A stretch of DNA of 64,000 nt from Escherichia coli (GCF_024298765.1 NZ_CP101212.1), one strand, 5' to 3'; positions 1,247 through 46,855 are shown, counted from the first letter of the stretch. Notes: generated by a model not told the origin, from the sequence alone. Numbers and translations are program-made.

Positions 1247-1262
1247 GGAAGCGCGTATGCCG

Positions 1263-7620: not shown

Positions 7621-7766
7621 TTTTCTGCGCATTACGTCCGTGTTGGATAAAAAAAATCCTGGCCATAATCTATGCGAATCATAGCTGGATAGACATGGTT
7701 TTCCGCAATCCTTGAACCGCCCCGGGAATCCTGGAGACTAAACTCCCTGAGAAAGAGGTAAACAGG

Positions 7767-8966: not shown

Positions 8967-9105
8967 GTTCACAGATAAAACACTCTCCAGGAAACCCGGG
9001 GCGGTTCACCTACAGAGTACCGCTACCACTTGTGAAGCTGGCAGATTCAGATTGTTTTCAATCGACAACGCCTCATAGTTAAAGTCATCAACGACATTGA
9101 ACGTG

Positions 9106-11737
<2,632 letters not shown>

Positions 11738-11819
11738 CACACCTGTATAGCGGCGTAATCCCCAAAAACGATGCTGGTTGTCAGTAAACAAGCCATGAAT
11801 GACAGTCGTTCCTGAAATC

Positions 11820-12060
11820 ATAAGACCTGGAGGAGTGTATGCTCCGTCGCAGTAATTACCACGATACGCTTGCAGAATTTTTTCCAGTTACTGAAGCGTG
11901 AACGGATAAAGAAAAAGCTCTTCGGAACGCGGGAAGACGCCTCCAACGATATTTTTGAACATCGAAATGTTTTATAACAATAAGCGTCGGCATGGTTCCT
12001 GCGAACAGATGTCAACAATAGAATATAAAAACAATTATTATCAACAACTTGGAAGGAGTA
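11820..12060 (+). pseudogene. IS3-family orfB 3' fragment, frameshifted
   Basis: Plus-strand translation ...NFFQLLKRERIKKKLFGTREDASNDIFE / FYNNKRRHGSCEQMSTIEYKNNYY across two frames. Confidence 0.35.
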
Positions 12061-12668
12061 AGACTACTCGTGGCGATTCAATATTAGATCATTGATGGAG
12101 ATATAAATGGCTCACTTTTTATCGGTTGTTGACGATACGTTTATCAAGTATACATGAAAATTTCTTCATACCAGCTATATGAGACGTTAAGACTAATAAT
12201 CTTACTCCCAAAATGACTATGTTGTTGCAGTTTGGTTTATTGACTCTTGTCTATAGTTCACCGAATGCCAAGATGAGGGAGCGAGGAACTTTACTGTCTA
12301 CGCCTCTCTTCCTGGTTACAAAGACAAGCGTAAAACTCACCATCCATTAGAACTAAAGGCACTTTCCTGAGCAGAGTTTTCATCTGCAAGATAAAAGCTA
12401 TTTTACAGCCGTAAAGTCCAGTGAAACGAAAGAGAGGTTAGTGAATTAATTACTTGATGTATTAAAGTATAATGGGCGTAGATAACACCTTAATACGAAA
12501 TCTTGTCAGGCTTTCCCGGTAATTAGTAATACTGTTGAAACAAAGCGAGAGGGGGTTAGCCCAATTTACGCAAATAAATAATAATCTTGATTATGATTAA
12601 TTCCAAATAAGTATATTTTTCCAGTAGATGCTGGGCATTAACTAAGAAAACCCAGAATACCACTTTCA

Positions 12669-15814: not shown

Positions 15815-15817
15815 TAT

Positions 15818-17188
15818 ATGAAAATTTTATCATCGTTGACTTTATGCCTTATCACCGCACTCTGTTCAGGTTGCACAAACGTGCTGAAAAGTGACTATCG
15901 CGCTCCCGAAGTGAACTATCCCATCAACTGGACCAAGGGCGATGTGGACGGAAATACATCCCCGTTTGACTGGGAAGAATTTAACGATCCTAATCTCGAT
16001 AACTGGCTTCACCTGGTGATGACAAGTAATAACGACATAGCTATAGCTGCACTGCGGATACATCGGGCGCAGCTGGATGCGGAAAGAACAGGTATCACCA
16101 ATACTCCTGCACTAAAGGCGGCACTGAGTATGGACGGAAAAAAACAGCTGAATAACTCGTCCGGCTGGGCAAAAAGCGGTTCTGCCAGCCTTGGCACCAG
16201 CTATGAGCTGGATCTCTGGGGAAAAATTGCCCGTCAGCGTGATGTTGCTGAGTGGGCAGTCCATGCCAGTGAAGAAGATTTTCGCTCCGCGCGCCTGATG
16301 CTGCTTTCAGAGGCCAGCAATAATTACTGGCGTATCGGTTTTGTAAATCAACAAATTACCACCCTCCAGCAGAGTATTGACTATGCAAAAGAGACGCTGC
16401 GTCTGGCCGAGGTTCGCTATCGTGCAGGAAATATCTCGTCGCTGGATGTGATTGACGCGCAGCAAAACCTGCTCACGCAAGAGAACCAGCTTACAGGGCT
16501 ACAACGAGAACATTCACAGCTACTCAATCAGCAGGCCGTTTTGCTCGGCACCGTGCCCGGTTGCCAGATAGTCGAGCCCACAACGCTGCCAAAAGGAAGC
16601 CTGCCTAAGGTCAATGCGAATATTCCTGCCAGCATACTGATGCGCCGGCCTGACATAAGTGCTAAAGAGTGGCAGTTGCGTGAGGCGCTAGCTACGGTTG
16701 ATATCAAGCGTAGCGAATATTACCCCACCTTCAACCTGACAGGCGCTTTGGGTACCAGCAGCGCTTCGCTACTGGCATTACTGCATAATCCGGTCGGTTC
16801 CGTAGGCGCTAACCTGACGCTACCGTTCCTGGAGTGGCGACAGCGGGACATAGAGGTAAAAATTGCCCGTAACGATTACGAACAGCGAGTGCTGGAGTTT
16901 AAACAGCTACTTTATAAGGCAATGAGCAGTATAGAGGACGCGCTTTCATTTCGTAACCAGTTGCTGCTTCAGGAGACAAGACTCAGGGAAGAACTGGAAC
17001 TTGCACGTAAGTCAGAGTGGTTAAACGAAGTTCGTTACCGGCATGGTGCAGTACGTATTTCATTCTGGCTTGATGCTCAGGAAAAACGTCGTCAGGCGGA
17101 GCTGCGACTGGATGAAAACCGCTTCAATCAGTTGCAGAATCTAGCAAAAATTTATCTTGAGTTTGGCGGGGCATCAACCTTTCCTTAA
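15818..17188 (+). CDS. etsC: TolC/NodT-family outer-membrane efflux lipoprotein
   Basis: 456 aa; lipobox LCSGC; third gene of the tripartite set. Confidence 0.8.
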   Translation: MKILSSLTLCLITALCSGCTNVLKSDYRAPEVNYPINWTKGDVDGNTSPFDWEEFNDPNLDNWLHLVMTSNNDIAIAALRIHRAQLDAERTGITNTPALKAALSMDGKKQLNNSSGWAKSGSASLGTSYELDLWGKIARQRDVAEWAVHASEEDFRSARLMLLSEASNNYWRIGFVNQQITTLQQSIDYAKETLRLAEVRYRAGNISSLDVIDAQQNLLTQENQLTGLQREHSQLLNQQAVLLGTVPGCQIVEPTTLPKGSLPKVNANIPASILMRRPDISAKEWQLREALATVDIKRSEYYPTFNLTGALGTSSASLLALLHNPVGSVGANLTLPFLEWRQRDIEVKIARNDYEQRVLEFKQLLYKAMSSIEDALSFRNQLLLQETRLREELELARKSEWLNEVRYRHGAVRISFWLDAQEKRRQAELRLDENRFNQLQNLAKIYLEFGGASTFP

Positions 17189-17499
17189 GTCTAATTGGGG
17201 ACAACCAGGAGCAATAAGGAGTGAAAAATAGCCACAGCTGAAAACACCATAGCCATTGACATTTGAGCTTTACCTGCTCTTGAAAACAAAAAATCACTGT
17301 TAAGCGCAATGCTATTCACTTCAGCAGAGCAGTATTGCGTGTCACGAGCATGTTTACCATTCTGTGTAAATATCTTTTCTTAAAAGTGATCATCAAAGCA
17401 GTCATCAAACTCGATAAATATCCACCGGCATAGCGTAATGCCGAGCAATTAAGGATCAATTGACCGCTCCTTAAACTGCGGCACTATAACGGCTTCTAC

Positions 17500-17880
17500 A
17501 ACAGGGAGCCGTTTTCTTGTGCATAGAAACCCCCCAGCTAGGCTGGGGGTTCCGGAAAGCTTTCAGCTTTGAGCCAGTTATTAAAACCCCTTTTGATTTA
17601 TTAAAACACCTTGCGGTCTGGCAACTGCAAGTGTCAAACAAGAAATCAAAAGGGGGTCCCAATGGGGAACGAAAAGAGCTTAGCGCACACCCGATGGAAC
17701 TGTAAATATCACATAGTATTTGCGCCAAAATACCGAAGACAGGTGTTCTACAGAGAGAAGCGTAGAGCAATAGGCTGTATTTTGAGAAAGCTGTGTGAGT
17801 GGAAAAGTGTACGGATTCTGGAAGCTGAATGCTGTGCAGATCATATCCATATGCTACAATGTTTGTCAAAGCTCAGTGAA
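17500..17880 (+). mobile_element. IS200 remnant: left-end hairpin and 3'-truncated tnpA (17662..about 17852)
   Basis: aaaccccccagctaggctgggggtt hairpin; translation MGNEKSLAHTRWNCKYHIVFAPKYRR...ECCADHIHML then divergence. Confidence 0.6.
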
Positions 17881-17920
17881 AATGTCTAATCACTGGCTCA
17901 TTATAAATGTCCATATATTG

Positions 17921-17956
17921 AAAAGGCCGCTGCGAAAATCCCTCCCGCAGCGGCCT
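17921..17956 (-). terminator. Rho-independent terminator-like hairpin downstream of the AbiJ-like gene
   Basis: ggccgctgcg...cgcagcggcc stem followed by a T-run on the minus strand. Confidence 0.5.
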
Positions 17957-17984
17957 CTTTAGCATAACGTCATTATGCGAACCA

Positions 17985-18926
17985 TCACTTAATGTTCTTC
18001 TCGCATTTTAAGAGAAATAGTAAATTTGTAGCAGTAAGATGAAGCATATAGCTTACCAATTCTTCCGGAACCTCTTTAATATCAGCTCCTTGCCCATGAC
18101 CTGCATTTTTGTTTCTGATGGTTGGAATTCCTGTTTCCAGCATTGTTTTCAGACTTGTGAACTGGCTTTGTAAATATGCCGGAATTAAATTTTGACTTAA
18201 ACAGCTATTTATTAGTTTTGATGCTGTATCATTAGGACTATATTTCCAGTTATTCTTATCATGTATTGCTTTCATTATACTTTCAAATGATTTCAGACAA
18301 TCATTTAGACATTCTTTATAACGCTTATGCCTGTAATGCTCATGCGCAGCAAGGAATTCATCATTGGCGCCTTCAAACAAGGGTTCTCCACTTAAAAGAA
18401 TCAGGGTTGGCTTTACGACATCAGCATGAATCAATTGAGAGTCTATCCTTATTATCTCTTCAGATTCAAACTGATAACCAACCCCATGTTCTCTAAACCT
18501 TTCATTTAGTTCAATAACTGCATCTCCAGGACTTTGACTTGTTATGTCTTTGAATTCATAATGGTTTTTCGCAACGTGGCTCACTAGTATCTGGAAGCAT
18601 ATTTCTATGAAATCTAGGCATTTCTCTGTATTTCTCTCTTTAAGGAAAAAGTCGACAAGAGCGTCAAAGTCATTCTTTGCAAATTCCTTCAAAGAAAAAA
18701 CACCATATTCCTTAGAAAGTATCTCATGGATATATGCATATACTTTGTCAGCTTCATTTCTATACGATGTGTAGCGTTCATTAGAAGAGGGGAAGCCGAT
18801 AGAATCAGTTATTATTTTAATAATTTGCACCCTGAGTGCATGTGGAATATTGTTATATTGATATACGTCATTTACTTCGCCACGAATTTTTCTTTGTCTC
18901 TTAGAATAAATATTAATAATTGCCAT
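17985..18926 (-). CDS. HEPN-domain protein, AbiJ-like (putative single-gene abortive-infection/defence protein)
   Basis: 313 aa, visibly AT-rich; C-terminal R-x5-H motif (RNKNAGH) of HEPN type; family assignment is from memory, not a search. Confidence 0.4.
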   Translation of the reverse strand: MAIINIYSKRQRKIRGEVNDVYQYNNIPHALRVQIIKIITDSIGFPSSNERYTSYRNEADKVYAYIHEILSKEYGVFSLKEFAKNDFDALVDFFLKERNTEKCLDFIEICFQILVSHVAKNHYEFKDITSQSPGDAVIELNERFREHGVGYQFESEEIIRIDSQLIHADVVKPTLILLSGEPLFEGANDEFLAAHEHYRHKRYKECLNDCLKSFESIMKAIHDKNNWKYSPNDTASKLINSCLSQNLIPAYLQSQFTSLKTMLETGIPTIRNKNAGHGQGADIKEVPEELVSYMLHLTATNLLFLLKCEKNIK

Positions 18927-19160
18927 GAAATAGCCTCAAGATTTTTTTACATGCTGTTCTGTGATACTTGCTGTTTGGCTCTTTGCACCGCGAAGCGGTT
19001 CGGGGTTCTGTGACACCCGAATTTTACCTCGGTTTCCTTTGTATATAATATCATTGAAGTTATTTGCATTTCTCAGAAATCTTCTCTGGCTTTGATTGCA
19101 ATAGCCGAAAGATAGCGCACACATCGCCGTTGGTCAGTTAGTACGAGGTTTCCGCCAAGT

Positions 19161-20550
19161 TCACCTTTTACCAAAGATGGCCTCAGAGCTTCCCTGAAGC
19201 TTTATCATGGCTTCAAGTAGGTCATCTTCGTTCAGTGAGCGCTGAGATTTGTTGATGCTAGGGGCGTGCCGTCTGCGGGAAGGCTCATCACCAGAACAAG
19301 GTAACGATTGTGAGCGATTATTGTCCCGTTTTCTCTGGACCTGACGGGCAACATCCAACACATGGCCAAGTCTCTTGTTATCTACAATGGCGACGGGATC
19401 AACCTCAGAAAGCCGGTCATAGGTGGAGTAGGGCAGCAGCACGCCATTTAGTCGCAGCTCCTTATGTCCGTCAGGATAATGCCAGACATCAATATACTTG
19501 CCGATGGCTCTTCGACTGTACTCGTTGTCCTCAATCAGATAGAGCATTTTATCGTATTGTACAGTCAGATTTTTTGATACCCGGCGAGGCTCTCGCTAGG
19601 TAAATTCTGCATCAAGGTCATCGTCTAATGCCAGCGGCCGGTGCGCGTTAAAATCATGCAAGGGTTCTTTGGCAAAGCGCCGGTTATAATCCTTCTGCAA
19701 ATGCATTGGCCGCTTCTATTGTACAGATCCCCTTAAGCCTGAGCTCCTTAACGAGTCGGTCCTGAAGTGTCAAATGAGCACGTTCAACGCGGCCTTTTGC
19801 CTGGCTGGTTTCAGCACACAAAGGAGTAATATTAAGGCAGCGCATGGCCCTGGCAAACTGGGTTTCGCCGGGGCCGGTGGTGGCGTGCTTATTATTGACT
19901 CTGAATACGCTGGCTTTATCGCTGTAGAGGATCATCGGTTTACCGTATTTCTCGATATAGCCACGTGTAGCTTCAAAATAGGTAAATGTGGACTCAGATT
20001 TCACAAACAGCAGGTGCATCAGGCGACTGGTGGCATCGTCAACATAGACCAGGGCAGAACAGGGTCGCCCCCGGTTTTCAAACCAGTGGTGGTCGCAGCC
20101 ATCAATTTGTATCAGCTCGCCAGTACAAGGACGCCGGTAACGAGGCTGATGAATTTTCGGTGCGCGTTGTCTGCGGGGAATCCAGAGTCCGGCCTTTATC
20201 ATGAGACGTCGGATGGTTTCCTTTCCAAGGACCAGACCGTGAACTTCCTCCAGCTTTTCCCGCGCTAGCGTGGGGCCAAAATCACGGTAGTGCTCCCGGA
20301 TTATACTGAGTGCCTGATCTGTCAGTGACGCTGGCAACAGACGGTTACCAGTGCGGCCACGACTCTGGTTGTTCATGCCAAGCGGCCCATACTGGCGATA
20401 ACGTTTGAGCAGACGGCTGCAATGACGTGGCGTGATGCCCAGCATTTCGGCAGCCTGTCCAGGACGGATATTGCGATCGATGACATCCTGAAGGATTTTG
20501 AGGCGATTGATTTCTTTCACGGTGAACATTCCGGCGTCATTTATAGCCAT
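19161..20550 (-). pseudogene. DDE (rve-core) transposase with N-terminal HTH, split into two ORFs
   Basis: ORFs 19684..20550 (HTH plus DGCDHHW...YSDKASVF...KGRVER core) and 19161..19547 (C-terminus) separated by a frame break. Confidence 0.5.
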
Positions 20551-20736
20551 AGAAAACTCCTCATCAGGAAAAAGTGAGTCGTTGTCTAGACATAGGGATC
20601 TGAGAAACTATAGCCTGGACATTCCTAATGAGCCACAAATAGACATTAGCATTGAGCCTCTACAATGTTTGTGCGCACAATCTATCTTATGTTAAATAAC
20701 ATTGAATATTAACTTACTTCATGAAGCTTACTGCTT

Positions 20737-21054
20737 CTATTTCCACTTCTTTTTCTTATTAATCGCTCCCCTAATCCACGCATTCATCTGCTCTACAGGC
20801 TCTAAAATATTTTTTCTGAGTACTGAGCACAAACTGCTCCATAAAAAACAGACCACAAGTTTGGGCATGATACTGATGTAGTCACGTTTTATTGTTTTCA
20901 TGAAGCTCTCTGCTATTCCATTACTCACCGGACTCCGCACCGCCGTGTTCTTCGATTTAAGTCCCAACATCCGAGCGAACTGGCGTGTTTCATTAACCCG
21001 GTAGTCAGAGTCAGCGGTCGAAAGACCTCCCAGGTAGCTACTCTGCATACCCAC
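20737..21054 (-). pseudogene. IS2-related orfB 3' fragment
   Basis: [43 protein letters not shown] matches the IS2 InsD region seen intact at 28684..29408. Confidence 0.5.
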
Positions 21055-21186
21055 TATAATGCAACTATTCTCGTGACGTGTGTTTCAGCTCTCCCCCGGC
21101 TATGATACGAGATGGTATGGAGAGCCCTTCTGGGGCCACTGCCTGCACCAGATGCAACAGGAAGCCTGATATGAATGCAATTTCTG

Positions 21187-22380
21187 TCAGGACAGGCGGG
21201 TAACTTTCTGTGGCCATGGATCAGGGAATACTCCACCCGACATCCACCACTGAATTTCTTCTTCAGTCAACAAGCAAAGGGATAAGGCATGTGTAAAATC
21301 ATTAACTTCAGTGGCATTGCCAATGATAGTCAACTGACAGCAGCGATCGCCAAATCGCCCAGAGGCTGTGTCGATGTGTCGCTGTAGCGCTGAACGTTCT
21401 TCACGAGTTAAATTATTGTCAGTATGTTCCAGTACTCCAGCTTTCCAGTAGCCAATGAGCGCCAGACTGATGCTTCCTGCTGACTGATTCCAGAGCAGGG
21501 CAAGATCATCTCTCCCGGGGAGCCAAAAAAAACCTTTACTGCGATAAACGCCCATGCCCATAAAGCGGTGACAGGTATCCCATAATCTTTGCGGATGGAA
21601 TGGCCTGTCGTCCCTGATGACGCGCCATATAAGTTCCTCATTGTTGCACGGAGTATCCATGTTTCCTACAAGTGCTTCCAGTTCACTGATGAGTAACTCA
21701 ACACGGTCAAAATTGTAGTCCGGGATCGCCAGTAATGTGCTCAGTTCAATATTTCCCCATGATACCGCGAGCACATCCACGGAGGGGTTAAGTGGGTGTA
21801 TGGCTTTTGCCACAGCGGAGATAATGTCAAAGGGCAGGCGGTCATTTCTGGTCAGCAGCAGCCTGTTGCAGAACATGATTTGCTCGGCCAGCAAATTCTC
21901 CAGGCCGCGTTTGTTATGCCGGAGATTTTCCTGAAGAGTGGGGATCAGTTTTTTCCCATCATTGTAATCTTCATGGAGCATGACAGTATCAACGAGTGTT
22001 AAAAACGCCTTCAGGCGTACACGTGAATGGCGACGCAGGTATTTGACCAGAGGAAGCGGATGACTGCTTCCGGAGGTTTCAATCAGCATCACATCCGGCT
22101 TGTTGTGATCAAGCAGGTGGTTAATTGCGAGATCCATCTTTTTGAGGCCTGCGGGGCTGCTGATGCTGTCTGCGGTGATACTTACGAAATTATTGTCTTT
22201 TGCATCTACAATATCTGTGTTGGCGATCAGCACGCCGTCCACATCCAGTTCGCTCATGTCATTGACTATGACAGAGACTGAAAGCTGTTTTTCGTGTGCC
22301 TGTATGAGCAGGTTTTTCAGCAGAGTGGTTTTCCCTGCGCCGAGGAAGCCATTGAGAATGATGACAGATGTTGTTTCCAT
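21187..22380 (-). CDS. CobW/COG0523 G3E-family P-loop GTPase (putative metallochaperone), divergent
   Basis: GFLGAGKTTLL Walker A, IETSG motif, CobW-like C-terminal domain; likely start at METTSV (22380) rather than 22494. Confidence 0.7.
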   Translation of the reverse strand: METTSVIILNGFLGAGKTTLLKNLLIQAHEKQLSVSVIVNDMSELDVDGVLIANTDIVDAKDNNFVSITADSISSPAGLKKMDLAINHLLDHNKPDVMLIETSGSSHPLPLVKYLRRHSRVRLKAFLTLVDTVMLHEDYNDGKKLIPTLQENLRHNKRGLENLLAEQIMFCNRLLLTRNDRLPFDIISAVAKAIHPLNPSVDVLAVSWGNIELSTLLAIPDYNFDRVELLISELEALVGNMDTPCNNEELIWRVIRDDRPFHPQRLWDTCHRFMGMGVYRSKGFFWLPGRDDLALLWNQSAGSISLALIGYWKAGVLEHTDNNLTREERSALQRHIDTASGRFGDRCCQLTIIGNATEVNDFTHALSLCLLTEEEIQWWMSGGVFPDPWPQKVTRLS

Positions 22381-23035
22381 ATCAGCAGTACACCAGTTAG
22401 TTAGCGAGGAAGGCGCTTGGTGGTACAAAGAGCATCCGGATTGAATCGCATAACGTCGACGGGAGTTGTTGTCGTTTTTCCTGTGAGGTCTCAACCTGCC
22501 ACAGAACGCACCGGATTTATTGGTATTTAGTCTCCATCAGCATAATTATCACCATTTTTATCTCCGGGGGAAGATTTGTTCTGAACAGGAGTGGGAGGTG
22601 TGACCTCCTGAAAGTAATTACAGATTGCTAGTTGTTGTATTTTTATTCGAATATGTCTCTTCGTATCAGTGATAGCACCTAGATAAAGTATATTCCGGGA
22701 GCGTTATCTGTTCTAGATATCAGAGAGTCAGTCATTTGTAAAAAAGAGAGCTGCATCATTCTATTTTTCCTGTCTATTCACCCTGTTGTCGTATCTAAAA
22801 GACATCCGTTCCGAGGATGTCGGGCACCCGTTCTGTACTAAGATACATAGCTTTTGGGTCTGCACTATTTGGAACCGACAGAAGTCTGTCTGTGATATCC
22901 GCATTTTTCTGTGTGCGATATATTCCGAAAAACTTCAAACCACTTAAAAGAGGTGTTTCCGGAGGATAAGTTCGACCAGGGAATAGTGTTTCCTGGTAAG
23001 TGTGGCGGAGCCAGTTCACCAGGAGTATCTTTCTT

Positions 23036-23072
23036 GGCACTGTTGCAAAGTTAGCGATGAGGCAGCCTTTTG
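23036..23072. mobile_element. 37-bp IS26 end fragment abutting the complete IS26
   Basis: ggcactgttgcaaagttagcgatgaggcagcctttt is the inverted IS26 end sequence. Confidence 0.55.
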
Positions 23073-23892
23073 GGCACTGTTGCAAATAGTCGGTGGTGAT
23101 AAACTTATCATCCCCTTTTGCTGATGGAGCTGCACATGAACCCATTCAAAGGCCGGCATTTTCAGCGTGACATCATTCTGTGGGCCGTACGCTGGTACTG
23201 CAAATACGGCATCAGTTACCGTGAGCTGCAGGAGATGCTGGCTGAACGCGGAGTGAATGTCGATCACTCCACGATTTACCGCTGGGTTCAGCGTTATGCG
23301 CCTGAAATGGAAAAACGGCTGCGCTGGTACTGGCGTAACCCTTCCGATCTTTGCCCGTGGCACATGGATGAAACCTACGTGAAGGTCAATGGCCGCTGGG
23401 CGTATCTGTACCGGGCCGTCGACAGCCGGGGCCGCACTGTCGATTTTTATCTCTCCTCCCGTCGTAACAGCAAAGCTGCATACCGGTTTCTGGGTAAAAT
23501 CCTCAACAACGTGAAGAAGTGGCAGATCCCGCGATTCATCAACACGGATAAAGCGCCCGCCTATGGTCGCGCGCTTGCTCTGCTCAAACGCGAAGGCCGG
23601 TGCCCGTCTGACGTTGAACACCGACAGATTAAGTACCGGAACAACGTGATTGAATGCGATCATGGCAAACTGAAACGGATAATCGGCGCCACGCTGGGAT
23701 TTAAATCCATGAAGACGGCTTACGCCACCATCAAAGGTATTGAGGTGATGCGTGCACTACGCAAAGGCCAGGCCTCAGCATTTTATTATGGTGATCCCCT
23801 GGGCGAAATGCGCCTGGTAAGCAGAGTTTTTGAAATGTAAGGCCTTTGAATAAGACAAAAGGCTGCCTCATCGCTAACTTTGCAACAGTGCC
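23073..23892 (+). mobile_element. IS26 (820 bp) with 14-bp terminal repeats GGCACTGTTGCAAA
   Basis: Both terminal repeats and full transposase read directly. Confidence 0.9.
23136..23840 (+). CDS. tnpA: IS26 transposase
   Basis: 234 aa from MNPFKGRHFQRDIILWAV...; identical protein encoded at 27322..28026. Confidence 0.9.
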   Translation: MNPFKGRHFQRDIILWAVRWYCKYGISYRELQEMLAERGVNVDHSTIYRWVQRYAPEMEKRLRWYWRNPSDLCPWHMDETYVKVNGRWAYLYRAVDSRGRTVDFYLSSRRNSKAAYRFLGKILNNVKKWQIPRFINTDKAPAYGRALALLKREGRCPSDVEHRQIKYRNNVIECDHGKLKRIIGATLGFKSMKTAYATIKGIEVMRALRKGQASAFYYGDPLGEMRLVSRVFEM

Positions 23893-23996
23893 CATCTAAC
23901 GCATAGTTGAGCGGCGGGCGCAGCCCGTCCGCTTGAACGCCGAGTTAGGCATCAGATGCCCTCGGCGCGGGTCGATGCACTTTTCGCACATGCCGC

Positions 23997-24785
23997 TCAA
24001 CGCAAGATTCTCTCAATCGTTGCTTTGGCATATCGAACGAACGCGGCCGTCTCTTCGACGCGCATTGCTAGGTCGTCGTCCTCGCTACCCAGGTACGCCG
24101 CGCGTGCCTTGCAGATGAGGGGCCGATGCTCGGCAGGCAAACGCTCCGATACCCATGCGGCAGCAACGTCCTTAGGAGCAATGAGACCAGTTGAAGCGCT
24201 GTACCAAATGCGAGCAAGAGCAAGAACGACGTTCCGCTCGTCACCCTTCCAATCCGACTCTGCATTCCACTGGGCAATAGTGTCGAAAAGCGCCTTGGAG
24301 AAATGCTCCTTCGGCACCGGCTCGAAAAACGTGGCTGCGGATGGGCCTAGAAGCGCAAGGCTGTGTTGCCTCGCCTTGGTCAGCAAAATCGCAAGATCGT
24401 GATCCAGAACGGCAGGCTCGAACGTTCCGGAAAGGATGTCGTGGCGGAGCCACTCACCGAACTGAAGCTCACGCCGCGCCGGATAGCGCCAAGGCACTAC
24501 TTCGCTTCGAGCGACAACAGTTAGCTCCAGCGGTCGCCATGTTCCGCCATCGCCTGGCGGTGATGAGACTTTCAGCAAATCGAGCATTAGCGCCTGCCGG
24601 AGCGAATCGTTAGGTGCGGCGCTGACGGTCACGAGCAAGTCTATGTCGCTGTCCGGCTTCAGCCCTCCATCGATCGCAGATCCGAACAGGTGGATTGTGT
24701 CCAGTGTCGCAGCCAGATGGCGCTCGATCACCGCGCGAGCGTGGGACAGCTGCTTGAAAACTTGTGCAGGGAAAAATTCACCCAT
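23997..24785 (-). CDS. aadA5: Aminoglycoside (3'') adenylyltransferase, AadA5-like cassette
   Basis: 262 aa nucleotidyltransferase with GS...DGGLKP..SDIDLL motif; second cassette after dfrA17. Confidence 0.8.
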   Translation of the reverse strand: MGEFFPAQVFKQLSHARAVIERHLAATLDTIHLFGSAIDGGLKPDSDIDLLVTVSAAPNDSLRQALMLDLLKVSSPPGDGGTWRPLELTVVARSEVVPWRYPARRELQFGEWLRHDILSGTFEPAVLDHDLAILLTKARQHSLALLGPSAATFFEPVPKEHFSKALFDTIAQWNAESDWKGDERNVVLALARIWYSASTGLIAPKDVAAAWVSERLPAEHRPLICKARAAYLGSEDDDLAMRVEETAAFVRYAKATIERILR

Positions 24786-24915
24786 GATGCCTAACGTTAA
24801 GTTCAGCGGCAGCTTTTAAGTTGCGGCTTTGTGGAATACTTTTGCGCAGCAAAACCACAAAGACGCGACTTAAAAGCTGTCCAAGGAGCGAAGCGACTGG
24901 TGCTGCAACGCATTG

Positions 24916-25389
24916 TTAGCCTTTTTTCCAAATCTGGTATGTATAATTTATATTAGACATAAAAAACTGTTCAAAAACCAAATTGAAATTCTCAGGCATT
25001 ATAGGGAATTTGATATCACCTTCGACTTCAACGTGAACAGTAGACAAATGAATTATATCTGCTTTTTCAATAAGGCTATTATAGATTTGACCCCCGCCAG
25101 AGACATATACATGATCTGTAACTTTTGATAGCTCTTTCAAAGCATTTTCTATTGAAGGAAAAACTAGGACGTTTTCATTTGAGCTTGAAATTCCGTTCTT
25201 TGACACTACTGCATATTTGCGATTTGGAAGAACACCCATAGAGTCAAATGTTTTTCTTCCGACAAGGAGCCATTGATTATATGTGAGCGCTTTAAAGAGT
25301 AGTTGCTCACCTTTTACTGACCACGGGATATCAGGACCACTACCGATTACGCCATTTTCTGACACTGCAGAAATCAATGATATTTTCAA
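24916..25389 (-). CDS. dfrA17: Trimethoprim-resistant dihydrofolate reductase, DfrA17-like cassette (TTG/GTG start)
   Basis: (M)[15 protein letters not shown]... about 157 aa DHFR; first cassette next to attI1. Confidence 0.75.
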
Positions 25390-25546
25390 TTTAACTCCCT
25401 TAATGGCTAACTTTGTTTTAGGGCGACTGCCCTGCTGCGTAACATCGTTGCTGCTCCATAACATCAAACATCGACCCACGGCGTAACGCGCTTGCTGCTT
25501 GGATGCCCGAGGCATAGACTGTACAAAAAAACAGTCATAACAAGCC
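25390..25546. promoter_or_regulatory. Class 1 integron attI1 and cassette promoter region
   Basis: Position between intI1 start and first cassette; not dissected base by base. Confidence 0.4.
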
Positions 25547-26560
25547 ATGAAAACCGCCACTGCGCCGTTACCACCGCTGCGTTCGGTCAAGGTTCTGGAC
25601 CAGTTGCGTGAGCGCATACGCTACTTGCATTACAGTTTACGAACCGAACAGGCTTATGTCCACTGGGTTCGTGCCTTCATCCGTTTCCACGGTGTGCGTC
25701 ACCCGGCAACCTTGGGCAGCAGCGAAGTCGAGGCATTTCTGTCCTGGCTGGCGAACGAGCGCAAGGTTTCGGTCTCCACGCATCGTCAGGCATTGGCGGC
25801 CTTGCTGTTCTTCTACGGCAAGGTGCTGTGCACGGATCTGCCCTGGCTTCAGGAGATCGGAAGACCTCGGCCGTCGCGGCGCTTGCCGGTGGTGCTGACC
25901 CCGGATGAAGTGGTTCGCATCCTCGGTTTTCTGGAAGGCGAGCATCGTTTGTTCGCCCAGCTTCTGTATGGAACGGGCATGCGGATCAGTGAGGGTTTGC
26001 AACTGCGGGTCAAGGATCTGGATTTCGATCACGGCACGATCATCGTGCGGGAGGGCAAGGGCTCCAAGGATCGGGCCTTGATGTTACCCGAGAGCTTGGC
26101 ACCCAGCCTGCGCGAGCAGCTGTCGCGTGCACGGGCATGGTGGCTGAAGGACCAGGCCGAGGGCCGCAGCGGCGTTGCGCTTCCCGACGCCCTTGAGCGG
26201 AAGTATCCGCGCGCCGGGCATTCCTGGCCGTGGTTCTGGGTTTTTGCGCAGCACACGCATTCGACCGATCCACGGAGCGGTGTCGTGCGTCGCCATCACA
26301 TGTATGACCAGACCTTTCAGCGCGCCTTCAAACGTGCCGTAGAACAAGCAGGCATCACGAAGCCCGCCACACCGCACACCCTCCGCCACTCGTTCGCGAC
26401 GGCCTTGCTCCGCAGCGGTTACGACATTCGAACCGTGCAGGATCTGCTCGGCCATTCCGACGTCTCTACGACGATGATTTACACGCATGTGCTGAAAGTT
26501 GGCGGTGCCGGAGTGCGCTCACCGCTTGATGCGCTGCCGCCCCTCACTAGTGAGAGGTAG
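25547..26560 (+). CDS. intI1: Class 1 integron integrase
   Basis: 337 aa, recognised as IntI1 ([44 protein letters not shown]...). Confidence 0.9.
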
Positions 26561-26737
26561 GGCAGCGCAAGTCAATCCTGGCGGATTCACTACCCCTGCG
26601 CGAAGGCCATCGGTGCCGCATCGAACGGCCGGTTGCGGAAAGTCCTCCCTGCGTCCGCTGATGGCCGGCAGCAGCCCGTCGTTGCCTGATGGATCCAACC
26701 CCTCCGCTGCTATAGTGCAGTCGGCTTCTGACGTTCA

Positions 26738-26762
26738 GTGCAGCCGTCTTCTGAAAACGACA
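26738..26762. repeat. Class 1 integron IRi (25-bp terminal inverted repeat)
   Basis: tgcagccgtcttctgaaaacgaca read directly. Confidence 0.5.
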
Positions 26763-27237
26763 ATGGAGGTGGTAGCCGAGGGTGTGGAAACACCCGACTG
26801 CCTTGCGTGGTTGCGGCAGGCGGGTTGCGGCACGGTGCAGGGTTTCCTGTTCGCCAGGCCGATGCCGGCGGCGGCCTTCGTCGGCTTCGTCAACCAATGG
26901 AGGAACACCACCATGAACGCCAATGAACCGAGCACCAGTTGCTGCGTGTGCTGCAAGGAAATCCCGCTCGATGCCGCCTTCACGCCGGAAGGGGCCGAGT
27001 ACGTGGAGCATTTCTGCGGGCTGGAGTGCTATCAGCGCTTCCAGGCGCGGGCCAGCACTGCGACCGAAACCAGCGTCAAACCGGACGCTTGTGATTCGCC
27101 GCCGTCAGGTTGAGGCATACCCTAACCTGATGTCAGATGCCATGTGTAAATTGCGTCAGGATAGGATTGAATTTTGAATTTATTGACATATCTCGTTGAA
27201 GGTCATAGAGTCTTCCCTGACATTTTGCAGGGAATTC
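26763..27237 (+). other. Tn21-type urf2/tnpM remnant and res site
   Basis: Sequence between IRi and the tnpR start includes AT-rich res-like region tgtaaattgcgtcaggataggattgaattttgaatttattgacatatctcg. Confidence 0.4.
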
Positions 27238-27269
27238 CATGACTGGACAGCGCATTGGGTATATCAGGG
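27238..27269 (+). pseudogene. tnpR: tnpR (Tn21-type resolvase) 5' stub cut by IS26
   Basis: atgactggacagcgcattgggtatatcagg encodes MTGQRIGYIR, then the IS26 end begins. Confidence 0.5.
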
Positions 27270-28089
27270 GGCACTGTTGCAAAGTTAGCGATGAGGCAGC
27301 CTTTTGTCTTATTCAAAGGCCTTACATTTCAAAAACTCTGCTTACCAGGCGCATTTCGCCCAGGGGATCACCATAATAAAATGCTGAGGCCTGGCCTTTG
27401 CGTAGTGCACGCATCACCTCAATACCTTTGATGGTGGCGTAAGCCGTCTTCATGGATTTAAATCCCAGCGTGGCGCCGATTATCCGTTTCAGTTTGCCAT
27501 GATCGCATTCAATCACGTTGTTCCGGTACTTAATCTGTCGGTGTTCAACGTCAGACGGGCACCGGCCTTCGCGTTTGAGCAGAGCAAGCGCGCGACCATA
27601 GGCGGGCGCTTTATCCGTGTTGATGAATCGCGGGATCTGCCACTTCTTCACGTTGTTGAGGATTTTACCCAGAAACCGGTATGCAGCTTTGCTGTTACGA
27701 CGGGAGGAGAGATAAAAATCGACAGTGCGGCCCCGGCTGTCGACGGCCCGGTACAGATACGCCCAGCGGCCATTGACCTTCACGTAGGTTTCATCCATGT
27801 GCCACGGGCAAAGATCGGAAGGGTTACGCCAGTACCAGCGCAGCCGTTTTTCCATTTCAGGCGCATAACGCTGAACCCAGCGGTAAATCGTGGAGTGATC
27901 GACATTCACTCCGCGTTCAGCCAGCATCTCCTGCAGCTCACGGTAACTGATGCCGTATTTGCAGTACCAGCGTACGGCCCACAGAATGATGTCACGCTGA
28001 AAATGCCGGCCTTTGAATGGGTTCATGTGCAGCTCCATCAGCAAAAGGGGATGATAAGTTTATCACCACCGACTATTTGCAACAGTGCC
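27270..28089 (-). mobile_element. IS26, inverted relative to the copy at 23073
   Basis: Terminal repeats at both ends; identical transposase. Confidence 0.9.
27322..28026 (-). CDS. tnpA: IS26 transposase
   Basis: Identical 234-aa product. Confidence 0.9.
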   Translation of the reverse strand: MNPFKGRHFQRDIILWAVRWYCKYGISYRELQEMLAERGVNVDHSTIYRWVQRYAPEMEKRLRWYWRNPSDLCPWHMDETYVKVNGRWAYLYRAVDSRGRTVDFYLSSRRNSKAAYRFLGKILNNVKKWQIPRFINTDKAPAYGRALALLKREGRCPSDVEHRQIKYRNNVIECDHGKLKRIIGATLGFKSMKTAYATIKGIEVMRALRKGQASAFYYGDPLGEMRLVSRVFEM

Positions 28090-28683
28090 TCTTTCTTATC
28101 CAGTTATACTGGATTTTATTAGATGATCACCCTACCCTGCAGCAGTACGCTGACGGTGTTTTTTTGGGAGAACCATTATGAATAACGTCATCTTTGATTG
28201 GTATTTATCTAGGCAAAAATTCATTCAACGTCCACTGCCAAGATGCAACAGGCAGAGTCCTTAACTGTCAGAATCCAAGTGCTCGAAATTATTCGAATTC
28301 CTTACTAATTCCTCCTACACAACTATTGTTATGGAAGCTTGCGAAGATGCTCACTATATGGCACGGAAATTTTCGGAAATGCGTCATAAAACAAAGCTAA
28401 TACCTCCTCATTTTGTCCAACCCTTCGTTAAAATTAATAAAAATGATTTCTTTGAGGCTGAAACCATATGTGAAGTTACATCAAGCCATCAATGAGATTT
28501 GTAGCATTAGGAGCTGAATCCCAGCAGAGGATTCCACTTTTCATCCGTCGTTGACAATGGCCTTGAAAAACGCCGTTACTCACCGTTCTCCTTCACGGTA
28601 ATACGCAGTTATAGTTGCAGAGCAATGTAATGGATCTTTTATATTAAGAAATTGTGTGAGTGGAGAGGTGCATAGATTTGCCC

Positions 28684-29408
28684 CTATATTTCCAGACACC
28701 TGTTATCACTTAACCCATTACAAGCCCGCTGCCGTAGATATTCCCGTGGCGAGCGATAACCCAGTGCACTATGCGGATGCCATTCGTTATAATGCTCGAA
28801 CGCCTCTGCAAGGTTCTTTGCTGCCGTTAACCCGTCTGGTTTGGGCATGACACTGATGTAGTCACGCTTTATCGTTTTCACGAAGCTCTCTGCTATGCCG
28901 TTACTCTCCGGACTCCGCACCGCCGTGCTCTTCGGTTCAAGCCCCAACATCCGGGCAAACTGCCGTGTTTCATTAGCCCGGTAGCATGAACCATTATCCG
29001 TCAGCCACTCCACTGGAGACGCCGGAAGCTCGTTGCCGAAGCGGCGTTCCACCGCTCCCAGCATGACGTCCTGTACTGTTTCACTGTTGAAGCCGCCGGT
29101 AGTGACCGCCCAGTGCAGTGCCTCACGATCACAGCAGTCCAGCGCGAACGTGACACGCAGTCTCTCTCCGTTATCACAGCAGAACTCGAACCCGTCAGAG
29201 CACCATCGCTGATTGCTTTCTTTCACGGCCACTCTGCCTGTATGTGCCCGTTTCGATGGCGGTACAGCAGGTTTTCGCTCAAGCAACAGCGCATTCTGGC
29301 GCATGATCCGGTAAACACGTTTGGCATTGATCGCAGGCATACCATCAAGTTTTGCCTGTCTGCGAAGCAGCGCCCATACCCGACGATAACCATACGTGGG
29401 CAGCTCTC
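28684..29408 (-). pseudogene. IS2 orfB (InsD) 3' part, separated from its 5' part (30667..30850) by IS3
   Basis: InsD sequence reads into the IS3 end at 29409. Confidence 0.75.
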
Positions 29409-29464
29409 TGAGCTTACCCAGCAATAGTGGACACGCGGCTAAGTGAGTAAACTCTCAGTCAGAG

Positions 29465-29773
29465 GTGACTCACATGACAAAAACAGTATCAACCAGTAAA
29501 AAACCCCGTAAACAGCATTCGCCTGAATTTCGCAGTGAAGCCCTGAAGCTTGCTGAACGCATCGGTGTTACTGCCGCAGCCCGTGAACTCAGCCTGTATG
29601 AATCACAGCTCTACAACTGGCGCAGTAAACAGCAAAATCAGCAGACGTCTTCTGAACGTGAACTGGAGATGTCTACCGAGATTGCACGTCTCAAACGCCA
29701 GCTGGCAGAACGGGATGAAGAGCTGGCTATCCTCCAAAAGGCCGCGACATACTTCGCGAAGCGCCTGAAATGA
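29465..29773 (+). CDS. IS3 OrfA
   Basis: 102 aa [31 protein letters not shown]... Confidence 0.85.
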
Positions 29774-30636
29774 AGTATGTCTTTATTGAAAAACATCAGG
29801 CTGAGTTCAGCATCAAAGCAATGTGCCGCGTGCTCCGGGTGGCCCGCAGCGGCTGGTATACGTGGTGTCAGCGGCGGACAAGGATAAGCACGCGTCAGCA
29901 GTTCCGCCAACACTGCGACAGCGTTGTCCTCGCGGCTTTTACCCGGTCAAAACAGCGTTACGGTGCCCCACGCCTGACGGATGAACTGCGTGCTCAGGGT
30001 TACCCCTTTAACGTAAAAACCGTGGCGGCAAGCCTGCGCCGTCAGGGACTGAGGGCAAAGGCCTCCCGGAAGTTCAGCCCGGTCAGCTACCGCGCACACG
30101 GCCTGCCTGTGTCAGAAAATCTGTTGGAGCAGGATTTTTACGCCAGTGGCCCGAACCAGAAGTGGGCAGGAGACATCACGTACTTACGTACAGATGAAGG
30201 CTGGCTGTATCTGGCAGTGGTCATTGACCTGTGGTCACGTGCCGTTATTGGCTGGTCAATGTCGCCACGCATGACGGCGCAACTGGCCTGCGATGCCCTG
30301 CAGATGGCGCTGTGGCGGCGTAAGAGGCCCCGGAACGTTATCGTTCACACGGACCGTGGAGGCCAGTACTGTTCAGCAGATTATCAGGCGCAACTGAAGC
30401 GGCATAATCTGCGTGGAAGTATGAGCGCAAAAGGTTGCTGCTACGATAATGCCTGCGTGGAAAGCTTCTTTCATTCGCTGAAAGTGGAATGTATCCATGG
30501 AGAACACTTTATCAGCCGGGAAATAATGCGGGCAACGGTGTTTAATTATATCGAATGTGATTACAATCGGTGGCGGCGGCACAGTTGGTGTGGCGGCCTC
30601 AGTCCGGAACAATTTGAAAACCAGAACCTCGCTTAG
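29770..30636 (+). CDS. IS3 OrfB (DDE transposase domain)
   Basis: 288 aa with DDE core; overlaps orfA in -1 frame. Confidence 0.85.
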
Positions 30637-30807
30637 GCCTGTGTCCATATTACGTGGGTAGGATCACTCCGATAACATGGTGTATACGGAGAAGCACATC
30701 CGTATCATCAGTGTGACGACTGCGGCGGCCATCCATCCAGTCATCGGTTCGTCTGAGAATGACGTGCAACTGCGCACGCGACACCCGGAGACAACGGCTG
30801 ACTAAGC

Positions 30808-31173
30808 TTACTCCCCATCCCCGGGCAATAAGGGCGCGTGCGCTATCCACTTTTTTGCCCGTCCATATTCAACGGCTTCTTTGAGGAGTTCATTTTCCAT
30901 CGTTTTCTTGCCGAGCAGGCGCTGGAGTTCTTTAATCTGCTTCATGGCGGCAGCAAGTTCAGAGGCAGGAACAACCTGTTCTCCGGCGGCGACAGCAGTA
31001 AGACTTCCTTCCTGGTATTGCTTACGCCAGAGAAATAACTGGCTGGCTGCTACACCATGTTGCCGGGCAACGAGGGAGACCGTCATCCCCGGTTCAAAGC
31101 TCTGCTGAACAATTGCGATCTTTTCCTGTGTGGTACGCCGTCTGCGTTTCTCCGGCCCTAAGACATCAATCAT
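30808..31173 (-). CDS. IS2 OrfA (InsC)
   Basis: [41 protein letters not shown]... Confidence 0.8.
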
Positions 31174-31782
31174 CTGTTCTCCAATGACTAGTCTAAAAAC
31201 TAGTATTAAGACTATCACTTATTTAAGTGATACTGGTTGTCTGGAGATTCAGGGGGCCAGTCTAGTGCACGAATCCTAGAGGCAGAATGTTTCTCCACAT
31301 GCTTGTGGAGAAACCGCCGCATTTTGCCCGTTCTGTACGATACTCCGTAGCCAGAGATAAGATATTCTGTTGCTGTATGCTACATACATTACACTATACG
31401 AAATCAGGTCTGTTCAATCAGTAAGGAAATAAACGGACAAACGTTATGTAACCCAGACAGAGATATATTGTCTGGGAAAATAGTGGCTTTTGTGGCGAAA
31501 ACTAGTAAAACAGCAACCCGAACCACTTGATGTGCATCGTTTTTGATTATTCCCGTATACTCTTGCAGAAGGAGTTCTCCGTCGGGCTACTGTCATGGTT
31601 AATGCGGGGAATATGGCGACAATACAACACACCTAAAAGAGTAATGGACAGATGAAGCGGTTTATTCATTTCCCATGATTCTGAGTACCTACCAAGTCTG
31701 AGTAACCACTTTTATACTTTTAATTTTCGTTCATTTAGCTATCGTTTAATTATTATCACATAGGATTCTGCCGTTTTTAACA

Positions 31783-32091
31783 ATGCAGGATAATAAGATG
31801 AAAAAAATGTTATTTTCTGCCGCTCTGGCAATGCTTATTACAGGATGTGCTCAACAAACGTTTACTGTTGGAAACAAACCGACAGCAGTAACACCAAAGG
31901 AAACCATCACTCATCATTTCTTCGTTTCGGGAATTGGACAAGAGAAAACTGTTGATGCAGCCAAAATTTGTGGCGGTGCAGAAAATGTTGTTAAAACAGA
32001 AACTCAGCAAACATTCGTAAATGGATTGCTCGGTTTTATCACTTTTGGCATCTATACTCCGCTGGAAGCCCGGGTATATTGCTCACAATAG
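31783..32091 (+). CDS. iss: Iss/Bor-family serum-survival lipoprotein
   Basis: 102 aa with lipobox LITGC; recognised as Iss. Confidence 0.85.
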   Translation: MQDNKMKKMLFSAALAMLITGCAQQTFTVGNKPTAVTPKETITHHFFVSGIGQEKTVDAAKICGGAENVVKTETQQTFVNGLLGFITFGIYTPLEARVYCSQ

Positions 32092-32950
32092 TTGCCCATC
32101 GATATGGGGAGCTCATCTGCACTGTTCATTAATATACTTCTGGGCTCCCTACAGTTGTTTTTGCATAGTGATAAGCCTCTCTCTGAGGGAGGAAATAATC
32201 CTGTTCAGCGATGTCTGCCAGTCGGGGGGGCTGCATTATCCACGCCCGAGGCGGTGGTGGCTTCACGCGGGGATGGGCAGATTGATCTGATATGCAACCG
32301 ACGACGACCAGCGGCAACATCATCACGCAGAGCTTCATTTTCAGATTTGGGCCACCTTTTGATTTCTCGTTTAACTTTTGCAGTCACCAGACTGTGATTT
32401 ATTTTAACAAATCAATAGCTTTCATAAAATTCTCGAAGCTGAAAGCTTAACTGAACCAACCAGCCTGGCTGGTGTTTTCTAAAGACAAAAAGGCCATCAG
32501 CAAAACACTGATAGTCTGAATCACCTTTATCAATCATGTATGAAGAAAATATGCGCAATTAGTTGACAGTGATTATCATTTTCATTAAAAAGAGCGCGTA
32601 GCATTCTTATTTCATGAGGAAATTTACCCGCCAACAACCTGAGTAGCGAAAGCTGTTCATCCCCAATATTTTTGCTGGCGGGTTCTTTTTTCTACTGTCC
32701 TCCTCCCCAGAGGAAGCATTCCCATTAATCATTACTGGCGAGGAGGCAAGAGAAAAAGTCGGTTCTTTGTCCCTAAATAACAGCATCATTTCAGTCCATG
32801 CAAAATCTGATTTACCAGCTCACATAATAACCTGATGATACACAGTGTAAGTTCACAGAGATATTGCAATTGCCTCCGGATAAGTAAGGGGAGATTGCAC
32901 TATGCAAATGCAGCACCTGAGGTTGGCTATCCTAAGCAGCCGATTATGCG

Positions 32951-34001
32951 TTGAGGCTTTCAGTGATGGCTGATATAGCAACAATGAGAATGAAGGCTCT
33001 GCACTTCTGGGATAAACACGGTATTTCTGCAGCTTCTGAAGCCTTTGGCGTATCCTGCCGCACGCTTTACTGGTGGCGTCAGTTACTGAACAAGGGAGGA
33101 CCTGAGGGGCTAATCCCGCACAGTAAGGCACCTCTGGTGCGACGAAAAAAGCACTGGCATCCCGATGTGCTGAAAGAGATTCGACGCCTCAGGACAGAGC
33201 TGCCGAACCTCGGTAAAGAGCAGATTTTTGTTCGCCTGAAGCCCTGGTGCGCATAACGCCATCAGACCTGCCCGAGTGTTTCCACCATCGGCAGAATGAT
33301 CGCCACCGCACACGATAAAATGCGGATGATACCAGTACGTCTGAGCTCGCGGGGTAAGGCTCTGCTTGTCAAAAAGCGAACCACCAAACCCCCGCAGGCC
33401 AAAGCACTACCGTCCGGTAAAGACAGGAGAGCTCATTGGGATGGACGCCATTGAGCTCAGAATGGGTGAAATGCGTCGCTATATCATTACCATGATCGAC
33501 GAACACAGCGATTACGTACTGGCGCTGGCTGTGCCGTCGCTCAACAGTGATATCGTCAATCACTTTTTCAGCCGTGCAGCCCGGCTGTTCCCTGTCGGTA
33601 TCAGCCAGATCATCACAGATAACGGGAAAGAGTTCCTGGGAAGCTTTGACAAAACGCTGCAGGAAGCCGCCATCAAACACCTCTGGACCTATCCCTACAC
33701 GCCAAAAATGAACGCTATCTGTGAACGTTTTAACCGGGCATTAAGAGAGCAATTCATTGAATTTAATGAAATTTTACTCTTTGAGGATCTGGCGTTGTTT
33801 AACCTGAAACTGGCGGAATATCTGGCGCTGTATAACAGCAAAAGACTCCACAAGGCGCTCGCACTAACGACGCCCGTGGAATATATTTTAAAAGAGAACA
33901 AAAATTGCAATATGTGGTGGACCCATACACAGCAAACGCACAGGCCGCCCCGGTTGGGTAGATATGTGGGATGGCTGGTTCAGACTTCAGGATATGGTTG
34001 A
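32951..34001 (+). pseudogene. DDE transposase (HTH + rve core) split into two ORFs
   Basis: 32951..33256 HTH part and 33366..34001 core (ITDNGKEF...ERFNR) in different frames. Confidence 0.45.
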
Positions 34002-46715: not shown

Positions 46716-46855
46716 TGTATAATTGGCAATATATGGGGATTCATAGTCATTTCTGAGATAATATACGTTAGGCCTTCTCTCCCGTACGGAAATCACTTGT
46801 TTTCCGTAAATTACCTGAATCTTAATCCCTGAGCTGCGGCGGTAATGACTCCAAC

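Follow-up and report, generated by a model that had tools for sequence, protein, structure and literature searches.

A 5,054-bp block in a 64-kb window of Escherichia coli DNA (the window is the whole stretch that was analyzed) carries an integron fragment between two inverted copies of the insertion sequence (IS) IS26. The block occupies positions 23036-28089 and lies inside a ColV virulence plasmid of the avian-pathogenic type. The locus began as one simple insertion of IS26, with its transposase gene tnp26 on the minus strand, at the octamer TCTTTCTT, which still flanks the block as a target site duplication (TSD). The two ends of this first, resident IS26 are a 37-bp stub at the left edge of the block, which carries the right terminal inverted repeat (IRR), and the left terminal inverted repeat (IRL) end of the right-hand complete copy, IS26-R. 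The DNA between base 37 of the resident IS26 and its remaining part was added later, and the three inner junctions alone stem from later IS26 reactions. The general proposal that the block has grown from a resident IS26 is given a probability of about 0.85.

The TSD is a direct 8-bp repeat that encloses the whole block, with one copy at 23028-23035, to the left of the stub, and the other at 28090-28097, directly to the right of IS26-R. The empty site was reconstructed by deleting 23036-28097 and fusing the flanks, which gave 1,400 bp containing TCTTTCTT once. An unbroken match to it, with 1400/1400 identities, was present in 456 PLSDB plasmids and in 512 records from complete E. coli genomes. 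All the carriers inspected were IncF plasmids, of the ColV-type IncFIB/FIC group, with a cobW-family GTPase gene and an IS3 at the site. When the window was aligned with pAPEC-1 (NC_011980.1), the two flanks shared exactly eight subject bases, 20693-20700. Because the fused flanks are identical over 1400/1400 positions in about 500 plasmids, the TCTTTCTT repeat is not a chance match, and the perfect outer duplication together with the uninterrupted site in hundreds of plasmids identifies a simple insertion as the first event at the locus. The stub (23036-23072, minus strand) matches the outer IRR end of IS26 exactly over 37 bp, the 14-bp terminal repeat and 23 bp beyond it, and diverges at base 38. 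Its orientation matches that of IS26-R, which is what would be seen if the stub and the IRL of IS26-R were the two ends of a single element. The only IS26 ends in the window are those of two full copies, IS26-L (23073-23892, plus strand) and IS26-R (27270-28089, minus strand), and the third terminal repeat at 23036.

The original prediction, made from the sequence of the window, had noted that neither IS26 copy has matching 8-bp flanks and had concluded that the locus arose by IS26-mediated rearrangement rather than simple insertion. The flanks of the individual copies are indeed unmatched (GCCTTTTG and CATCTAAC for IS26-L, TATCAGGG and TCTTTCTT for IS26-R), and the inner flanks GCCTTTTG, CATCTAAC, and TATCAGGG do not match one another directly or as reverse complements. 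Independent simple insertion of each IS26 copy is thus ruled out. A single-step intramolecular inversion was also rejected, since it needs reverse-complement 8-bp repeats and none occur among the five flanks. The rearrangement part of the conclusion therefore stands for the inner junctions, but the TCTTTCTT duplication around the block had been missed, and with it the simple insertion that came first. The proposal that the 37-bp fragment abutting the left copy records an earlier IS26 event is supported, and the outer flank of this fragment carries the TSD.

Two collections, PLSDB and the complete RefSeq E. coli genomes, were searched with probes of 30 + 30 bp across each junction (J0-J4), at an E-value cut-off that excludes half matches. 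The stub/IS26 junction (J1) was present in several records. The junction of IS26-L with the aadA5 attC site (J2) was found only in plasmid pG12a, and the junction of tnpR codon 10 with the minus-strand IS26 (J3) only in plasmid p1-S1-ZIM-01-A. The inner junctions thus occur separately elsewhere, and no record in either collection has J2 and J3 together. Neither J0 nor J4, which join IS26 to the backbone site, had a match in these collections, and no record in them has the 5,054-bp block at the TCTTTCTT site.

The 3,377 bp between the two IS26 copies, from the aadA5 attC site through the truncated tnpR (delta-tnpR), are all identical to pG12a (NZ_CP129273.1), including the IS26/attC junction. 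pG12a is an IncFIB/FIC plasmid from a chicken E. coli, with the gene order mer-urf2-IS26(+)-aadA5-dfrA17-intI1-tnpM-res-tnpR-tnpA. It differs from the window in retaining mer-urf2 to the left of IS26 and an intact tnpR-tnpA past the window's cut, and in having no IS26 at TCTTTCTT. At position 26830, in the Tn21 urf2M/tnpM remnant, the window has G (glycine codon GGC) in place of the common A (aspartate). Among 10 loci compared, pG12a alone shares this single-nucleotide polymorphism (SNP); eight other loci, including that of p1-S1-ZIM-01-A with its J3 junction, carry A. Because the IS26/attC junction and the SNP are shared, the passenger DNA can be assigned by its sequence to the pG12a type, in which the 3' conserved segment (3'-CS) of the integron had already been replaced by IS26. 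An origin from the usual ST131 plasmids was rejected; these share the segment, but their tnpR is cut 137 bp further in, their 3'-CS is kept, and they have the A allele. The apparent 100% cover of the locus and its flanks by pHXH-1 (NZ_MH202955.1) was likewise set aside, since it is composed of joined pieces and the resistance region of that plasmid lies about 4 kb away at another site.

The octamer TATCAGGG in tnpR, at 27262-27269 of the window, is a recurrent IS26 target. In Escherichia fergusonii pTB44P1 (locus L023, 6013-6860) an IS26 variant with three SNPs is inserted at this octamer, oppositely oriented and flanked by a TATCAGGG duplication of its own. p1-S1-ZIM-01-A shares the tnpR/IS26 junction of the window and has a different allele background. 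This octamer has been struck by IS26 independently, more than once.

The route tentatively favored for the later events, at slightly less than even odds, is a cointegrate formed by the resident IS26, followed by an adjacent deletion by the IS26 that came with the Tn21 fragment. The starting point would be a pAPEC-1-like IncFIB/FIC ColV plasmid that took up one IS26 at TCTTTCTT, and the donor would be a pG12a-type Tn21 in whose integron another IS26 had already replaced the 3'-CS. In the first step the resident IS26 would attack TATCAGGG at tnpR codon 10 and form a replicative cointegrate, which would place mer-urf2-IS26-aadA5-dfrA17-intI1-tnpM-res-delta-tnpR against the IRR end of the right-hand IS26. 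This step would create the delta-tnpR/IS26-R junction and leave the IRL end of IS26-R on its original flank. In the second step the Tn21-borne IS26, now IS26-L, would make an adjacent deletion from its IRL end that stops 37 bp inside the left-hand IS26. The rest of that IS26, tnpR-tnpA, the remaining donor replicon, and mer-urf2 would be lost, and the product would be TSD-stub-IS26(+)-integron fragment-IS26(-)-TSD. The reactions in this route are documented for IS26 (PMC7986276; PMC4471558).

Several points weigh against this reconstruction. The end product does not reveal in what order, or by what type of reaction, the later events took place, and at least two other IS26 routes converge on it. 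No intermediate was found, and with the J0 and J4 probes a lone IS26 at TCTTTCTT was absent from PLSDB and the complete E. coli genomes. The SNP link to pG12a is drawn from the 10 loci compared, and the visible part of the replicon is 64 kb. The tnpR/IS26 junction, which is present in another plasmid, could have been inherited rather than made here.

An inherited junction is the basis of the first alternative, which is unlikely but deserves consideration. The donor would already have carried the module IS26(+)-aadA5...delta-tnpR-IS26(-), and the first step would be the same, a resident IS26 with its duplication. IS26-L would then be copied into the resident IS26 at 37/38, after which recombination between the donor IS26(-) and the 791-bp remainder of the resident element would drop the rest of the donor. 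Both inner junctions exist elsewhere, in pG12a and p1-S1-ZIM-01-A, respectively, and IS26 copies recombine readily. A long palindrome would result where an inverted IS26 abuts the remainder, and this may favor its loss. However, no PLSDB or complete E. coli record joins both junctions, and the plasmid with the tnpR/IS26 junction has A at the position corresponding to 26830, whereas the window and pG12a have G.

Two successive intramolecular replicative inversions on one plasmid, with a resident IS26 and a pG12a-type Tn21::IS26, are a further alternative, to which a somewhat lower likelihood again is given. The resident IS26 would hit tnpR in trans; the Tn21-borne IS26 would then hit position 37/38 of the new copy in trans, which would restore the orientation of the backbone, and no DNA would be lost. 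On paper this yields all four junctions and the outer duplication, following the inversion scheme of PMC7986276. pG12a, as an IncFIB/FIC plasmid, belongs to the same backbone family. After such a history, other parts of the plasmid should hold more IS26 copies, a truncated IS26, mer, and tnpR-tnpA, but the 64-kb window has none of these and is colinear with pAPEC-1 for 23 kb leftward and about 5.7 kb rightward of the block.

Stubs like that at 23036-23072 are found at other loci as well. An exact copy of the 37-bp stub lies directly against a full IS26 of either orientation in plasmids and chromosomes with at least nine different outer flanks (loci L005, L006, L009-L013, L037, and L038, and the window). 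Its flanks include delta-blaTEM in an IncF plasmid, delta-wcaM in a group of E. coli chromosomes, a Tn21-type tnpR in a Klebsiella pneumoniae plasmid, and five other plasmid or chromosomal sites in addition to that of the window. In pCRST035_1 the stub and its IS26 are flanked by their own 8-bp duplication, CTTTCGAC, which parallels the situation in the window. One and the same resident junction can bear stubs of differing length, 37 or 53 bp at tnpR ...CATTGGG and 37 or 51 bp at ...GAGCTTCAGC. The Tn21-type tnpR junction ...GGACAGCGCATTGGG/IRR, 10 bp upstream of the cut in the window, is found in two plasmids (L030, NZ_CP183127.1; L009, NZ_CP129872.1), whose stubs measure 53 and 37 bp, respectively; an inverted IS26 follows each stub. 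Because the same junctions bear stubs of different lengths and pCRST035_1 keeps the original duplication, these cases indicate that stubs probably arise in place, when a second IS26 hits a resident one. The possibility that stub and IS26 together are an inherited 857-bp variant that spreads as a unit is weakened, since the same junctions differ in stub length and the adjacent IS26 has either orientation.

The stub data also bear on whether the whole 5,054-bp block moved as a unit, like an oversized IS26, with the transposase Tnp26 acting on the stub repeat and the IRL of IS26-R to form a cointegrate that was then resolved. The ends of the block are correctly oriented 14-bp repeats, the 8-bp duplication has the length typical of IS26, and stub plus IS26 adjoins many different sequences. 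These varied flanks are better explained by second hits, though, given that the same junction has stubs of differing length. A second block, or both inner junctions together, is absent from PLSDB and the complete E. coli genomes, and a 37-bp end as a substrate of Tnp26 is hypothetical, so that movement as a unit is improbable. An assembly artefact in which the 820-bp repeats were mis-joined, or a mixed population with both orientations of the 3,377-bp segment, is highly improbable: perfect inverted repeats of 820 bp exceed short-read length and can flip the segment, an event that creates no new junction sequence and would be invisible in the window, but a chimeric join would not be expected to leave an outer duplication, to restore the empty site exactly, or to match pG12a perfectly over the segment.

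The distribution of stub lengths was surveyed. PLSDB was scanned for IRR-end stubs of 30-74 bp with probes that were unbiased as to length, and 30 exact records were obtained, with lengths of 30, 37, 39, 40, 47, 50, 52, 53, 56, 63, 67, 68, and 70 bp. The 37-bp length was tied for the most records (five), and the four of these that were inspected have four different outer flanks. Matches in E. coli genomes added lengths of 17, 24, 26, 32, 51, 62, and 82 bp, each decoded from the sequence among the top rows of 5,800 matching records, where adjoining probes had re-created natural IS26. Much longer IS26 fragments beside full copies are common. A pattern scan of contigs from genomes and metagenomes for two IS26-type terminal repeats 21-51 bp apart yielded eight loci, three of which are unrelated coding repeats and five of which are IS-derived. 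Three of these five are 37-bp stubs beside a full copy; they belong to two further IS6-family elements, whose 14-bp terminal repeat is that of IS26. The other two are a 33-bp stub of the IRL end of IS26 and a 49-bp stub in Acinetobacter (loci L018, 1655-1705; L019, 4044-4094; L021, 119-169; L017, 62-108; and L014, 4724-4786).

A small GCCTTT/AAAGGC hairpin follows the tnp26 stop codon, and the 37/38 breakpoint falls 2 nt beyond its first arm. The second-commonest class of stubs is 53 bp long and ends at the equivalent point of the other arm, 53/54 being 2 nt past it. GCCTTTTG corresponds to positions 30-37 from the IRR tip and starts at the first arm. A rough binomial comparison with a uniform model gives p of about 1e-3 to 2e-4, a value that assumes independent contexts and for which 37 bp was the length probed first. 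These observations are suggestive only of 37/38 as a favored, not exclusive, breakpoint. That GCCTTTTG is a preferred target of IS26-family elements entering a resident copy is a tentative idea that may well prove wrong. If it is true, incoming copies would be directed to a set distance by an IS end that is structured or bound by transposase, a kind of end-targeting that the searchable papers do not describe for the IS6 family. A real 37-bp preference would be a testable rule for how IS26 copies pile up in resistance regions. The searchable literature has no description of a 37-bp IS26 stub or of a hot spot for IS26 within IS26, and the IS6 review PMC7986276 does not refer to such a hot spot. 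Literature matches to "37 bp" were IncN iterons, which are unrelated to IS26 stubs.

The components of the block are as the original prediction had listed them: an inverted IS26 pair bracketing aadA5, dfrA17, intI1, the inverted repeat IRi, a urf2/tnpM-res remnant, and a 10-codon tnpR stub, with a 37-bp IS26 end fragment against the left copy. Both IS26 copies are complete at 820 bp, are 100% identical to each other as an inverted repeat, and have perfect 14-bp terminal inverted repeats, GGCACTGTTGCAAA, at each end. Each has a single IS6-family DDE transposase gene (tnp26, 23136-23840 in IS26-L and 27322-28026 in IS26-R; NF033587, E = 2e-82, 275.6 bits against a cut-off of 125), and IS26-L is the same as RefSeq copies encoding WP_001067855. 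Classification as an IS26 pseudo-compound transposon or the product of a translocatable unit was rejected, since the flanking copies are inverted, not direct. Nor is there another record of the unit with other duplications, as in a classical compound transposon, in PLSDB or the complete E. coli genomes.

The integron part runs leftward from IRi, the 25-bp inverted repeat at its intI1 end (26738-26762, exact string match). The integrase gene intI1 (25547-26560, plus strand) is full length, encoding 337 amino acids (NF011946, 1-337/337, E = 2.5e-241). The minus-strand cassette promoter Pc, TGGACA-17-TAAACT, lies within intI1 at 25634-25662; it matched the search string exactly, and we take it to be the PcH1 variant. 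The recombination site attI1 (25408-25484, minus strand) is an exact match to what we take to be the canonical string. These features are those of the 5' conserved segment of a class 1 integron, bounded by IRi. Two cassettes follow, both on the minus strand. dfrA17 (24916-25389, TTG start) encodes a trimethoprim-resistant dihydrofolate reductase (NF000330, 1-157/157, E = 2e-90), and the same DNA is annotated elsewhere as DfrA17. A spacer with the dfrA17 attC site (24786-24915, boundaries approximate and read from the sequence) separates it from aadA5 (23997-24785), whose product is a streptomycin/spectinomycin adenylyltransferase (NF012157, E = 3e-135; AadA5, WP_000503573, on the same DNA in RefSeq). 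The calls for aadA5, dfrA17, and intI1 are based on NCBIfam models and on 99.97-100% DNA identity to RefSeq and PLSDB loci.

The complete aadA5 attC site, which ends in the core GTTAGAT (23894-23900), and the last base of the 3'-CS together occupy 23893-23996 on the minus strand, as seen by string search and by comparison with the intact aadA5-3'-CS junction of locus L003. IS26-L starts one base past this core, and the only remainder of the 3'-CS is a single base (G, read as C at 23893), which agrees with the earlier claim that the left IS26 removed this segment. qacEdelta1, sul1, tni, and IRt are absent from the block. The structure is an integron remnant without a 3'-CS, not a complete "clinical" class 1 integron. 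With intI1, attI1, PcH1, and two complete cassettes, it is a functional-looking integron that lacks qacEdelta1 and sul1.

To the right of IRi, a C-terminal remnant of Tn21 urf2M, equivalent to tnpM (26763-27113, plus strand), consists of an EAL-domain tail with weak matches to EAL/phosphodiesterase C-termini and a DUF3330 domain. RefSeq labels the same DNA "DUF3330 domain-containing protein, missing N-terminus." The segment at 27114-27238, between tnpM and tnpR, is 100% identical to Tn21-type loci that run into tnpR-tnpA and presumably acts as the Tn21 res region. The delta-tnpR (27239-27269, plus strand) retains 31 nt, 10 codons translating as MTGQRIGYIR and one further nucleotide, as judged against the intact tnpR of L003 and pG12a. 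The Tn21 part is thus a fragment, not a transposon, with only tnpM, res, and 31 nt of tnpR, whereas a Tn3-family transposon of the Tn21 subgroup has the module tnpM/urf2M-res-tnpR-tnpA and a mer operon enclosed by 38-bp inverted repeats.

The host plasmid has the backbone of the ColV type found in avian-pathogenic strains (IncFIB-IncFIC). Window positions 66-9447, 11718-23035, and 28090-33789 are colinear with NC_011980.1 at 99.93-99.98% identity and include RepFIB, mig-14, an SDR-family oxidoreductase, an omptin-family protease, a MacB-type efflux operon, the cobW-like GTPase gene, IS3, and iss. The insertion site has the cobW-like GTPase gene on one side and the IS3/iss region on the other. 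Directly to its right, 28684-31218 is IS debris that is present in pAPEC-1 too, so that the IS26 target was at the edge of an older IS cluster. This debris comprises a truncated IS3-family orfB-like open reading frame (28684-29424, minus strand), a complete-looking IS3 (orfA, 29465-29773; orfB, 29770-30636), and a 136-codon open reading frame (30808-31218, minus strand) that resembles an IS2-type orfA by eye. A 2,270-bp insertion relative to pAPEC-1, at 9448-11717, encodes a 507-amino-acid group II intron reverse transcriptase/maturase on the minus strand (TIGR04416, E = 8e-102). Two further repeats were noted in the window. One is a 771-nt inverted repeat at 46841-47611 and 57851-58621, with 96% identity, arms 10.2 kb apart, and a length in the size range of insertion sequences; the other is a 300-nt direct repeat at 54812-55111 and 59521-59820, with 71% identity and 4.7 kb between its copies.

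A ColV-type virulence plasmid has thus gained genes for resistance to trimethoprim and to streptomycin/spectinomycin. The integron would still be able to acquire cassettes, and screens based on sul1 or the 3'-CS would miss it. For annotation, TSDs should be sought across IS fragments also and not only around each complete copy; here such a check replaces the reading "no duplication, so rearrangement" with a history of ordered events. The value of the locus lies in this corrected history and in the sul1-less integron on a ColV plasmid, and the recurrence of the stub may be of specialist interest.

All the components are textbook ones, with about 100% identity to database copies, and their assembly at TCTTTCTT is new to the two collections searched. 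The passenger DNA is closest to that of pG12a, and the backbone to that of pAPEC-1-type plasmids. The IS26 copies are like those described previously in their length of 820 bp, the 14-bp repeats GGCACTGTTGCAAA, the IS6-family DDE transposase, and the 8-bp duplication, and the locus resembles known IS26 products in its truncated neighboring genes and rearranged junctions without duplications (PMC7986276; PMC4471558). It differs from the usual products, in which the copies are direct, in that its copies are inverted and its duplication encloses a stub together with a full copy instead of a single element. The multiresistance IncF plasmids pEK499 (NC_013122) and pEC958 (HG941719) have the same Tn21/In2-derived order aadA5-dfrA17-intI1-IRi-tnpM-res-tnpR at 99.97% identity, with an IS26 cut in tnpR. 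In these plasmids and in AR_0055, however, the IS26 cut in tnpR lies 137 bp deeper in the gene and the 3'-CS (qacEdelta1-sul1-chrA...) is still present, whereas in the window the cut is at codon 10, none of the 3'-CS genes is present, and the backbone is that of a ColV virulence plasmid. The 1,648-bp IS15, as described by Trieu-Cuot and Courvalin (1984) in the account cited in PMC7986276, consists of one IS15-delta/IS26-type element within another; it resembles the locus in that an IS26-family element has entered a further copy of itself, the kind of event that gave rise to the stub. According to that account, both parts of the interrupted copy are kept in IS15, whereas here 37 bp of one side remain and the other end lies 3.4 kb of passenger DNA away.

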